From contig OX597818.1 in the NCBI GenBank assembly GCA_951406725.2, positions 4,774,001 to 4,838,000 of the forward strand: a DNA stretch of 64,000 nucleotides, read 5' to 3'. Shown here piece by piece: positions 12,583 through 54,096 of this stretch. Source of the stretch: Octopus vulgaris. Its lineage: Eukaryota. The stretch's first letter is position 1, and each line of letters starts with the position of its first letter. The translations under genes and the position numbers were made by a program. The notes beneath the pieces were generated by a model. It saw only the letters and a program-made list of their open reading frames with translations, was not told where the DNA came from and did not search any database.

Positions 12583-12745
12583 TTATATATAGAGGGCATT
12601 ATTATACATAATGCCCTCTATATATAAATTAATATGTTCAATAAGAAAGAATTATTTTCGAAATTTTTCTCTTATGAGGTTTTTCACGCTATCTACCTGA
12701 TAATTTCTTATTAAGATTCCTTATTAAGATGTTATCCTTAATTGT
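12578..12745 (+). mobile_element. Short hairpin-capped element in (TA)n, related to 15585-15690
   Basis: Palindrome ATTTATATATAGAGGGCATT..AATGCCCTCTATATATAAAT followed by TTTTTCTCTTAyGAGGTTTTTCACGCTA..CTGATAATTTCTTAT, shared with 15620-15690. Confidence 0.55.
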
Positions 12746-14058
12746 TATATATATATATATATATATATATACATACATATTTTCATATGTATATGTGTGC
12801 ACGTGCGCGCGCGCATCTCTTATGTGTGTATGCACTTCATTTAATAAAGACAAAAATCTGCATTAAAAAATATGTAACTCCGGAAAACTATATTTTGCTG
12901 AATGAGTTTTCAAGGTAATCTAATTTTCTCTTTTCATTATCCTTAAGAACAAGTGCTCTTGTGTTTTTATTTGATGGTCTTTGAATGTGATTCGTAATCC
13001 AAAACCAAGGTAGCGATTCTCTTGGCAAATACATTTCTTACTAATCACTCTAATACAGAAAGATCAATACTTATAAGAAATACAACAAAATTTCTGATAT
13101 AATAATATGCAGAAATTTTGTCTGGTCGAAATTTAAAATAGGTAATGTGTTGAAATTTAAAGTTACACGGGTGAGAATTTACTTAATGGTTCTTCAAATA
13201 TTTCTCCAAATCACACACACTTGTTATTGAATGTTGCGTTTAGTCTAAATTTTCTCAAAGAGGACTAATTTATATCAAAATGTTTAGAAAATAACAATGT
13301 ATCAGCAGAAAGCAGTTTTCCAGGTCAAAGAAAGAGAAGAATCAAAACGTAGTTTCTGGTCTGATTCCATTTATTAAATTCTCATTATATTCGTGAATCT
13401 CTATCAAACGGTGTTTCTCATCGAAATTTCAATTTATGATTTAACGGTGTAATGAAATGCCGTATCAGCTTAGAACGCTCGGTTTATACTTAAAATTTGT
13501 TAATTAAACATCAGAGGCATAATATTATTTTGAAATATACTCATGAAATTTATATTCCGTTTTGGAATATGCAACAAAATTATTGCAAAAAAGAAAAAAA
13601 ATTGAAGATAACGAATTTAAAATTTGTTCAGCTTAGATTTAATGGTGCTTTGTGTGTCTACGTAAAGGCACATGAACTTCTTATGAACATCCATTACGTT
13701 TTCATTTACTTTCATATATTTTTTTTGTGCATCAATAGGTTAACTAATTTCATCCTGAATGACAACACAGAAAGTGAAACGAAATATGCTGAAACTACCA
13801 TTTACAGACTTATATCTGGAATGGATTTCTAAAATTTAACAAGGTTACAATCGTAACTTGATGTTTAGCATGTATCATGTCGTATGAGATAAAAAAAATG
13901 TGCGATAATACACAAAGTAACTGAATTCCTTATATACACAAACATCATATACATATCTGAACATGAGCTCCCCCCCACACACACACACGAAAGCACACAT
14001 ACATATCAGGTATTTCATGGATATATGTGCAGTGCCATATATATATATATATATATAA

Positions 14059-14934
14059 AATTTATAAAAATATGGTAAAGTAAAAAAATTCACTTTACCA
14101 CACACCGAACTTTTCAGAAATAGCAGCCAAAAATTTGGCTATTTCTTCAACTGCAAATAAAAGTCTCCAGACAATGCATACTCAGAAAATAACTCACATA
14201 GGTATAAGGGAAAAACAATGAAAGATCACATCCATATACGATACCCGAGGACAGTCTGTTTCTGGATTTGTGGGTAAAACGCCACTTTTCCTTCATCAGC
14301 TCAGAGATTTCTTCTGATTTAGATTTGAAAATACTAAGAATCAAACATACCCGTCCGATATCTGTAACATCGGACAAACCATGCCAGACACCCAGTACTA
14401 GCGAATCCAAAAATACGAATGAGATCTATTATTCTCCCTGTCCACCCACGTGAGTCATAGAGCATTACATTTCTACAGAGGTAAAAACTGCAGTTCAAAT
14501 TCTTGGAGAGAAAGCATTATATTGTCATCAAAAAAAAGGGGTAGAATTAATTAATTGTTATTAAATTCGACCAAGCAGTATTCGGTATGTAAAGACCGTT
14601 TACGGTATATTTGAAGTATTAATTTATAAAAAATCCAGAAACAGACTGTCCTCGGGTATCGTATATGGATGTGATCTTTCATTGTTTTTCCCTTATACCT
14701 ATGTGAGTTATTTTCTGAGTATGCATTGTCTGGAGACTTTTATTTGCAGTTGAAGAAATAGCCAAATTTTTGGCTGCTATTTCTGAAAAGTTCGGTGTGA
14801 GGTAAAGTGAATTTTTTTACTTTACCATATTTTTATAAATTAATACTTCAAATATACCGTAAACGGTCTTTACATACCGAATACTGCTTGGTCGAATTTA
14901 TTAACAATTAATTAATTCTACCCCTTTTTTGATG

Positions 14935-14940
<6 letters not shown>
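14059..14940. mobile_element. Penelope pLTR/retrozyme-like element with A-X-B-A'-B' inverted structure, in (TA)n
   Basis: 14059-14269 is inverted at 14631-14841 and 14518-14632 is inverted at 14830-14940. Contains a hammerhead motif. Confidence 0.75.
14244..14305 (-). ncRNA. Type I hammerhead ribozyme motif
   Basis: TCTGAG-CTGATGA-a-GGA aaa GTGG(cgttttac)CCAC aaa TCC-a-GAAA-CAG(a)CTG-TC-CTCGGG. GUC cleavage site, near-palindromic stem III, A.A mismatch at 10.1/11.1. Confidence 0.7.
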
Positions 14941-15022
<82 letters not shown>

Positions 15023-15142
15023 TGAGGGTATTACTATTCATAGATACCGCACGCTAAGAGGGACCAATGCGGTCAAAACTACTAAAATAAACAAAATTTT
15101 AACGAATGCAAAACTTCAATTTGTCATTAAAAAAAGAATTTA

Positions 15143-15206
15143 GTTACATATCACCTGTGATTTCGCAATTAATGCAGAATATGCATTCTATGTTCATCAG
15201 TGCAAC
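15143..15206 (-). ncRNA. Type I hammerhead ribozyme motif (left arm)
   Basis: Exact reverse complement of 15387-15450. Confidence 0.75.
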
Positions 15207-15386
15207 AAACTCAAGACATATAAGAAAAAAACATAACGTTACAAACCCGATAGCCAACCGTAGAATTCGTCGTAGCATGTTTATCTTTACATATGTAAAG
15301 ATAAACATTCGTACATGCTACGACGAATTCTACGGTTGGCTATCGGGTTTGTAACGTTATGTTTTTTTCTTATATGTCTTGAGTTT

Positions 15387-15450
15387 GTTGCACTGATGAA
15401 CATAGAATGCATATTCTGCATTAATTGCGAAATCACAGGTGATATGTAAC
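15387..15450 (+). ncRNA. Type I hammerhead ribozyme motif (right arm)
   Basis: GTTGCA-CTGATGA-aCA..ATGCA(tattc)TGCAT..TGc-GAAA-TCA(cagg)TGA-TA-TGTAAC. 6-bp stem I, AUA cleavage triplet. Confidence 0.75.
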
Positions 15451-15685
15451 TAAATTCTTTTTTTTTAAATGACTTGCTTTGAAGTTTTGCATTCGGTAAA
15501 ATTTTGCTTATTTTAGTAGTTTTGACCGCATTGGTCCCTCTTAGCGTGCGGTATCTATGAATAGTAGTACCCTCAATATAATATAAATAAATATTTTCAA
15601 AGTGGAAAAATTTACGGATTTTTTCTCTTACGAGGTTTTTCACGCTAACTACTGATAATTTCTTATAAAATTTTATCCTCAATTG

Positions 15686-15801
<116 letters not shown>

Positions 15802-53235: not shown

Positions 53236-53431
53236 AACATCTTTGTTACTCATTTATATATATATATACAAAATGGGACAAGAACTCAAAACGTCCGGAC
53301 AACTAGGTGACACAAAATGGGACAACAAAAAATCCAGATAGACGATACAAAAAACACGGACGGGTCATACGAAGCCTTTAATCTTCAGTGAAGAACCGGA
53401 TCATCCTCGCAATTTCGGCTGATTAATCTTG

Positions 53432-53464
<33 letters not shown>

Positions 53465-53481
53465 TATATATATATAGGGGT

Positions 53482-53532
<51 letters not shown>

Positions 53533-53600
53533 TCAGTTGATCATATATCCGAAAAAGAAGCAGTAATGTCCTTACATGCAGTTAAATATATGTGCGATCA

Positions 53601-53664
53601 TAGAGTGTCCAATGGTTTCACACCCATAAAGCGCTTAGCTTTATGAAGGACTCGTCAGACTCTA
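53601..53664 (-). ncRNA. Type I hammerhead motif, probably inactive (U16.1 to A)
   Basis: TAGAGT-CTGACGA-...-GAAA-CCATTGG-AC-ACTCTA. Confidence 0.6.
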
Positions 53665-54032
53665 ATGGCGGAGAGCATATAAGCCCTCTTCAAACAGGAG
53701 ATAGAAATCCGTTACGGTCAGTTAATATGAAAACAAAGAATAAAATACCATTTGAGATTTAACCAGGACCAGTTATCTCTTTAGACTAGTTCAGTTGGCA
53801 ACTGTTATGGTCGCTTAGAGCCGGAAAAAGTCCTCGTTGGCTGATAACAGCCTAAGGGTGGAGATTCCCTGTTCACTCCTTAAGTTCATAAGATTTGCCA
53901 CTTAAACTGGTCTGAGGGAGACAATTCCTCCTGGCTAAACTTCAAACGTTATTTTATTCTTAGTTTACAAATTAACAGACCGTAACGGATTTCTACCTCC
54001 GGTTTGACGAGGGCTGATATGCCCCCCAACAT

Positions 54033-54096
54033 TAGAGTCTGATGAGTTCTCCATAAAGCTGAGCGCTTTATAGGTGTGAAACCATTGGTCACTCTA
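54033..54096 (+). ncRNA. Type I hammerhead ribozyme motif
   Basis: TAGAGT-CTGATGA-g..CC ATAAAGC(tgagc)GCTTTAT aGG..t-GAAA-CCA(t)TGG-TC-ACTCTA. Perfect 6-bp stem I, GUC site after 54090. Confidence 0.8.

Follow-up and report, generated by a model that had tools for sequence, protein, structure and literature searches.

A two-armed hammerhead retrozyme insertion in the Octopus vulgaris genome, probably copied from one circular RNA by a Penelope-like enzyme

The closest described relatives of the element analysed here are the animal non-LTR retrozymes of coral, Mytilus (350–390 bp) and axolotl (330/350 bp) (PMC7229834), for which unit lengths of 51–972 bp have been reported (10.64898/2026.07.22.740005). 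As characterized in the accessible text of these sources, they are non-coding tandem repeats of low GC content with one type I hammerhead, whose weak or palindromic stem III works as a dimer, and they are dispersed as monomers to oligomers; rolling-circle copying of a circular template by Penelope-like elements (PLEs) is proposed for them (PMC4209133, PMC7229834). For PLEs, the available portions of the literature give partial tandems, an adjacent inverted copy, a tail at one end and a (TA)n bias as hallmarks (PMC8557442), and report that an anole PLE cuts and extends both target strands, starts reverse transcription (RT) at two internal sites and is a predicted dimer, with insertion not needing cleavage and uncleaved RNA as the main substrate (PMC11167929). 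Both the copying of retrozymes and the reason for tandem and inverted PLE insertions have so far been proposed, not demonstrated.

In the window, the whole 64,000-nt stretch of O. vulgaris DNA that was analysed, positions 14059–14942 stem from one insertion event of a young family of hammerhead repeats, 562 nt long and without coding capacity. The unit resembles these retrozymes in the sequence characters listed above, including a length within the reported range, low GC (35%) and a stem III predicted to pair as a dimer; circles have been shown for animal retrozymes in the published text, whereas the octopus unit is known from sequence and contigs. We classify the element as a new member of the animal non-LTR retrozymes that works like a non-autonomous PLE, and not as an autonomous PLE. 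That it is a PLE-mobilised retrozyme we hold with high confidence; that the insertion was templated by a circle is quite likely. Our overall reading, a single retrozyme insertion into (TA)n by a PLE enzyme that copied one circular RNA monomer from both cut ends, we consider likely. The plant LTR retrozymes, with a type III hammerhead in LTRs, PBS/PPT and a 4-bp TSD, do not match a type I, tandem unit that has no LTR pair.

Unit positions are counted along the minus strand, with 14632 as position 1. Arm 1 (14059..14632, minus strand) is a full 562-nt unit plus 12 nt (unit 1–574), with the same 12-mer at both of its ends; its 3' end, at a position that we call site 1, meets the left (TA)n target tract (14037..14058). 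Arm 2 (14631..14942, plus strand) is an inverted partial copy comprising unit 364–574 followed by 13–115, whose 3' end, at site 2, meets the right (TA)n tract (14938..14965) via ATATA microhomology. The arms join with a 2–3-nt overlap of A residues and have the private variant T35C in common. Positions 14059–14269 are 100% complementary to 14631–14841 over 211 nt without gaps (99.5% by blastn), and 14532–14632 are 99% complementary to 14830–14930, with pairing continuing to 14942 at 97%. The 562-nt period is borne out by tandem arrays at other loci and by contigs that return after 562 nt. The initial annotation was thus right to describe a unit of about 560 nt with a hammerhead and an inverted partial copy, to conclude that the two outer segments of the forward part are contiguous in the source (the inverted copy joins them directly), and to place the start of that copy within stem II of the ribozyme, at unit position 364. 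Its right boundary, given as 14940, belongs at about 14942, and (TA)n lies directly against each outer end.

Within the insertion there is one complete hammerhead and half of another: at 14631..14656 on the plus strand, arm 2 retains half of stem II, GAAA, stem III, GUC and the 3' strand of stem I. By the definition of an active copy in the accessible preprint text, two consecutive complete hammerheads (10.64898/2026.07.22.740005), this copy would not count as active, and with its one complete hammerhead it is probably a dead end, unable to release a monomer.

A second two-armed hammerhead element, of another family with a period of about 495 nt (2394 candidates), lies at 15004–15690, about 60 nt away in the adjoining microsatellite; its cores are at 15200 (minus) and 15393 (plus), its arm ends are two sites about 96 nt apart, and a diverged piece of its family is found at 12622–12714. 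At 53430–54070 a further hammerhead with a palindromic stem III forms an inverted pair: one core is at 53658 (minus), where GUC has become GAC, and the other at 54039 (plus). By blastn this pair is unrelated to the three families tested.

The predicted hammerhead of the unit (14244..14305, minus strand) is of type I, in agreement with the earlier detection of a ribozyme. It consists of a 6-bp stem I (14305–14300 with 14249–14244), a CUGAUGA core (14299–14293), stem II (14291–14264) with an A.A mismatch at its base, GAAA (14262–14259) and the palindromic stem III ACAGACUGU (14259–14251), with predicted GUC cleavage between 14250 and 14249. The call rests on motif, pairing and covariation of stem I, in which three of the six pairs are changed on both sides across sibling families; Rfam is silent, with no match at gathering score on the locus and no hammerhead family at E<=10. 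The Rfam miRNA and sRNA matches at E<=10 were rejected as perfect inverted repeats of the neighbouring element. The hammerhead sequence is identical in 38 of 44 complete copies. According to the portion of PMC4209133 available, the base of stem II is normally a conserved G10.1–C11.1 pair; HHR_Amex2, as described in the accessible literature, likewise has a mismatch there. The strand of stem III is a palindrome around one A, of which two copies would pair at −6.9 kcal/mol, while a monomer would require a strained 3-nt loop, so that cleavage as a dimer, suggested at the outset from the near-palindrome, fits the modelled energies. In the minimum-energy circle of the unit the hammerhead is not folded, unlike most metazoan retrozymes as described in the text available; for Xenopus retrozymes, that of the preprint reports that one of nine dimers was cleaved in vitro (10.64898/2026.07.22.740005). 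With PLE hammerheads, as far as the accessible descriptions go, the unit shares an AUG within the core, an extra nucleotide after A9 and the palindromic stem III. The AUG opens a 49-codon frame, the longest such, without a Pfam match.

Just past stem I there is a splice-like GT, and a pyrimidine-rich AG precedes the 3' domain described below (14244–14151, minus strand); both seem to be kept in sibling families. Splicing (GT at unit 389 and 435, AG at 482) was set aside, since no contig from six probable RNA runs skips the interval, an absence which in itself proves nothing.

The family is dispersed through the 2.8-Gb genome. A first search gave 1396 candidates, from which 40 scored loci yielded 128 matches; a second, with a 171-nt query taken from inside the unit, turned up 427 candidates and 43 matches. 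The former favours copies that cover unit 1–574, and the latter does not. At the sequence level 37 distinct loci were viewed: 24 from the first search after removal of six duplicate windows, the locus L102 and 12 from the internal query. Across the 40 loci the longest run ranges from 0.96 to 3.58 units, exceeding 1.05 units in 34 and reaching two or more units in six. Half of the loci (20/40) have two or more complete hammerheads in one run and could release a monomer.

The outer ends of the copies lie in similar surroundings: as raw counts, (TA)4 is no more than about 20 nt away from 54 of the 57 outer 3' ends, and 15 of the 17 outer 5' ends lie at (TA)n. On the unit itself the two kinds of end behave differently. 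The 3' ends of runs (66 in 40 loci) are concentrated at unit <=34 (site 1, 35 ends) and 95–116 (site 2, 12 ends), two sites about 100 nt apart that together account for 47 of them, with five more at 66–73; 5' ends are scattered round the unit. Among the new loci found with the internal query only, 8/9 have an end at site 1 or 2, the exception being L123. The fixed 3' ends are likely RT start sites, some 190–205 and 290 nt downstream of the cleavage site. Random permutation of units is thereby ruled out, and what stands of the earlier reading of the forward part as one full permuted unit is the full unit, 562 nt plus 12, but not its free permutation. The exact one-unit length of arm 1 is one outcome of a scattered 5' stop, and the start of arm 2 inside stem II is likewise a random 5' truncation. 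A comparison of permutation points across copies, proposed in the initial annotation, therefore gave a divided answer, fixed at 3' ends and scattered at 5' ends. Ends shared by all copies, together with a lack of circular or cleaved RNA, had been named there as evidence against a circle; the fixed ends are half of that, and as they are likely RT starts and not the cleavage site, the circle is unrefuted.

Back-to-back arms are found in 20 of the 37 loci, with varying arm lengths, and are absent in 17. Site 1 is paired with site 2 in seven of the two-armed loci and with another AT-like point in nine; site 2 is paired with another point in two, and one locus uses neither. Both arms end at the same site in one of the 20 (site 1 twice), where 4.9 are expected (P about 0.007). 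Head-to-head inversions joined by microhomology and primed from both target ends are familiar from twin priming of LINE-1, but in its classical form that process leaves a poly(A) tail and pieces that do not overlap. In the 562-nt family the arms overlap (by 115 nt and 211 nt at 14059–14942) and both end at fixed sites; by inspection, the classical process fits only about two loci (L022 and L141).

What was copied can be read from variants private to a locus. In 25 loci, 15 such substitutions are present in every unit (10 loci), one is partly shared and 41 are single; three of the 15 span inverted arms, including T35C in the present insertion. The same count with 37 loci gives 14 fully shared, one partly shared and 54 single, and divergence in these loci is 0.61% within a locus versus 1.59% between loci. 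Private variants that are present in all units of a locus mean that each insertion repeats one monomer haplotype. Of the 47 crossings of the GUC cleavage site in 25 loci, 46 are identical and one has a substitution, with no indel; 5' ends within 5 nt of the site number one in 66, against 1.3 expected. The template is continuous across GUC, and a monomer is amplified to a multimer at or near each insertion. Seamless crossings and the lack of a 5'-end excess speak against a linear cleaved monomer with jumps at GUC. Continuity and shared haplotypes favour a ligated circular monomer as the simplest fit, and the origin first proposed, reverse transcription of a circular or tandem RNA, is supported.

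The unit sequence is present in 20 sequencing runs of six studies, none of them on record as RNA; we compared contigs from six runs guessed to be RNA and one of unlisted kind. In run X4 a single 597-nt contig (depth 76.6) holds the whole unit and closes on itself through a 30-nt self-overlap, and by hand comparison its haplotype carries variants seen in one genomic copy (L028). In X5 there is a closed loop with one two-way bubble (depth about 91). A contig of X3 crosses the unit junction, and X1, X2 and X9 are fragmented. The closed contigs in two of six probable RNA runs have no exits, a closure that a tandem transcript or homogeneous tandem array gives equally. One contig of X9 (depth 3) looks like the product of ADAR A-to-I editing: 12 of its 13 differences are T>C on the plus strand, corresponding to A>G on the ribozyme strand, mostly after U. 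Of 13 candidate sites in X9 and X3, nine follow U, seven fall in a long predicted hairpin of the unit, and only one has a genomic counterpart with A>G.

Two sibling families, one with a 602-nt unit (2063 candidates) and one with a 545-nt unit (1979 candidates), can be aligned around the whole 562-nt unit, with about 68–70% identity in the blastn-aligned parts, and have the same end pattern. As all three align in this way, their ancestor was already unit-sized. In the 545-nt family, each of the five two-armed loci that could be viewed in full has one arm ending at site 1 and the other at site 2. Compared with shuffles, the 562-nt unit folds strongly as a linear molecule (z −9.4) and as a circle, in which the sense strand (z −9.7) exceeds the antisense (z −4.1). 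The 602-nt sibling likewise favours the sense strand (z −9.5 versus −1.1), and the 545-nt sibling folds at least as well in antisense (z −9.5 versus −6.9 in sense). In a common fold of the three families, 32 of 111 pairs are changed on both sides, versus 2–7 in slid controls, a contrast that is inflated because the structures were derived from the same few sequences. Within the 562-nt family there is no clear sparing of pairs: 12 of 37 inherited variants break a pair, as do 21 of 54 that arose after insertion.

Two parts of this fold may be connected with the life cycle. The first is a predicted long rod, unit 136–220 with 396–486 (14147..14497, minus strand), which encloses the hammerhead and the long hairpin (unit 222–315; 14411–14318, minus strand) and in which 13 of 35 pairs (helices 3–6) are changed on both sides across the three families. 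As modelled, the rod flanks the cleavage site and would hold both ends of a cleaved monomer together. The other is a structured 3' domain of hairpins and a multi-way junction (14754..14942, plus strand), conserved by covariation, with 9 of 30 pairs changed on both sides across eight sequences versus 1–3 in controls. Site 1 lies in a single-stranded linker of its junction and site 2 just past its last hairpin, and we infer that the domain is a candidate RT-binding and initiation element.

Further diverged siblings with this common 3' domain are found at L008:2825-3030, L038:2504-2790 and L057:297-527; in the L057 copy the hammerhead core appears to be UUGAUAA. The 545-nt sibling is very young at L149–L168, with copies that are about 100% identical and arrays of four to five units. 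At L159:1-2437 full units alternate with 388-nt deleted units, as if a 933-nt heterodimeric circle had been copied or locally duplicated. At L104:1019-1875 the 602-nt family contributes an inverted arm that runs straight into an arm of the 495-nt family, which suggests one integration event using two different RNAs, and at L080:210-1490 a mariner transposon lies within a 602-nt family copy.

The link to Penelope elements made in the initial annotation is supported by the footprint of the insertions. As described in the available text on EN+ PLEs (Poseidon PAc of Anolis, Neptune, Naiad and the non-autonomous Chlamys/MRC1; PMC11167929, PMC8557442, PMC4209133), these share with the unit an AT-rich or (TA)n target, 5' truncation, partial tandems, an adjacent inverted 5'-truncated copy, and two RT start sites that give a tail at one end only. 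The differences are that the unit has no RT or endonuclease and that its tail is about 100 nt, against 30–40 in PLEs. The accessible text of the animal retrozyme papers contains no description of 3' ends fixed at two sites, of insertions with two arms, of a (TA)n target or of haplotypes specific to a locus, all of which are found here.

A partner that might supply the enzyme was sought with the PF01541 (GIY-YIG) profile, by which 150 of 6136 candidates were scored; 30 loci and eight extended regions, 38 GIY-YIG loci in all, were compared with the unit by blastn and nhmmer. The genome contains young PLEs with an intact 781-aa RT plus GIY-YIG frame, which we take to be of the Neptune clade from their CxxCxxC linker. 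These autonomous elements also form inverted arms, and their ends in (TA)n fall on two sites some 40 nt from each other. Among the 38 loci we found neither an autonomous PLE that shares sequence with the unit nor a sister pseudo-LTR (pLTR); the matches there are separate sibling insertions. The pLTR region tested from an autonomous Neptune-type PLE is not folded (z +0.7), whereas the whole unit is folded strongly and conservedly, and the unit shares no sequence with the sampled PLEs. One candidate, L048, looks like a host nuclease exon. No RT or GIY-YIG ORF is present within or adjoining the unit, and none of the 37 excised loci of the family runs into a PLE ORF; a unit flanking a Penelope ORF, which the initial annotation had proposed to look for, was not found. 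Searches for the siblings likewise returned only non-coding units: 30 fam2 and 20 fam3 loci scanned for ORFs contain no PLE ORF (one 315-aa ORF belongs to a nested mariner), and the mapped fam4 loci, 11 in number, are arrays of units. Since the PLE footprint matches and sequence is not shared, the enzyme is inferred from footprint and not from homology.

Taken together, the following series of events would account for the locus. Tandem source loci would be transcribed (contigs of probable RNA runs contain the unit), and cleavage would follow once two hammerheads pair as a dimer by their palindromic stem III. The resulting ends, held close to each other by the conserved rod, would be ligated, perhaps by RtcB, to judge from the available text of PMC7229834. 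A PLE RT-endonuclease, of the kind suggested by the accessible account in PMC11167929, would then bind the conserved 3' domain and cut both strands of (TA)n; cDNA would start from site 1 on one target end, and on the other from site 2, which lies about 100 nt more to the 3' side. How far each cDNA runs would be random, reaching up to 3.6 turns, and short microhomology would join the pair into head-to-head arms. At 14059–14942, copying would have ended after one turn for arm 1 and after about 0.55 of a turn for arm 2.

The same element and PLE enzyme might instead have used a linear template, which we regard as unlikely: an uncleaved or terminally redundant transcript (one unit plus tail) would be copied, multimers would be built by homology-guided strand transfer on the same molecule, and the hammerhead would be slow or otherwise used. 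Such a template is in keeping with the uncleaved main substrate and internal RT starts in the accessible anole work (PMC11167929) and with the non-canonical A.A at the base of stem II, and transfer within the redundant stretch would also leave junctions without seams and haplotypes in common. The starts of several near-monomer copies, at unit 23–45 or 105–122, could mark an RNA 5' end, although query bias and hairpin stops confound this signal. The rod is nevertheless kept paired across the cleavage site by compensatory changes in three families, as expected of joined ends; runs of up to 3.6 units carry one haplotype, the X4 and X5 contigs close without exits, and circles have been shown for other animal retrozymes in the published part of the record (PMC7229834).

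It is considerably less probable that the unit is a pseudo-LTR or 5' fragment of an unfound autonomous PLE, with arrays formed by DNA duplication or gene conversion from truncated PLE insertions. The accessible preprint text reports pLTR homology for 21 of 57 Xenopus retrozyme families (10.64898/2026.07.22.740005), the 49-codon frame opened at the hammerhead AUG resembles the arrangement in the anole PLE (albeit with no Pfam match), and the partner search covered 150 of 6136 candidates. Against such an origin are the lack of continuation into a PLE ORF in the loci of the 562-nt family, fam2 and fam3, the fam4 loci that proved to be unit arrays, the unfolded autonomous pLTR and the unit-sized ancestor of the three families; stepwise DNA duplication, moreover, should leave partly shared variants, of which one was seen. 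A fold-back DNA element (MITE) or an assembly artefact, with a hammerhead motif by chance, is scarcely credible. Ends that look like inverted repeats, AT-rich and repeat-rich surroundings and the silence of Rfam might suggest it, but it is already contradicted by copy structure: arm length varies, 17 of 37 loci lack an inverted arm, there are tandem arrays with fixed 3' and variable 5' ends, and the motif is conserved with covariation in siblings, in a unit found in runs of six studies.

Returning to a circle copied by a PLE enzyme, we tentatively propose a wider scheme, which is possible though doubtful: the 545-, 562- and 602-nt families may form one old clade of viroid-like circular RNA parasites without a surviving PLE parent, in which the covarying rod sets up circularisation and a dimeric PLE enzyme, loaded by the covarying 3' domain, uses two different sites of the same circle to prime the two cut ends of the DNA. 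If this were true, each insertion in the genome would be a record of rolling-circle reverse transcription, and the 3' domain would be a portable signal for PLE trans-mobilisation; should that domain suffice, it would define the cargo rules of PLEs. The family offers a concrete test substrate, since its unit is defined, its two start sites are mapped, its 3' domain covaries and each insertion has one haplotype, and the intact young PLE ORFs in the same genome add to its use. The class of element is already in print, and the 562-nt family adds whole-fold covariation across families and RNA-contig hints to it. Among openly accessible papers and the main texts of preprints, we found none on a cephalopod retrozyme or on two-site priming of retrozymes.

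The abundant young Neptune-type PLE at L061:406-4087 has an upstream open frame of about 330–360 aa that overlaps the 781-aa RT-endonuclease frame. Its pLTR contains repeated CCAAT/TGACGT motifs and a minimal hammerhead with a U3–A8 core.
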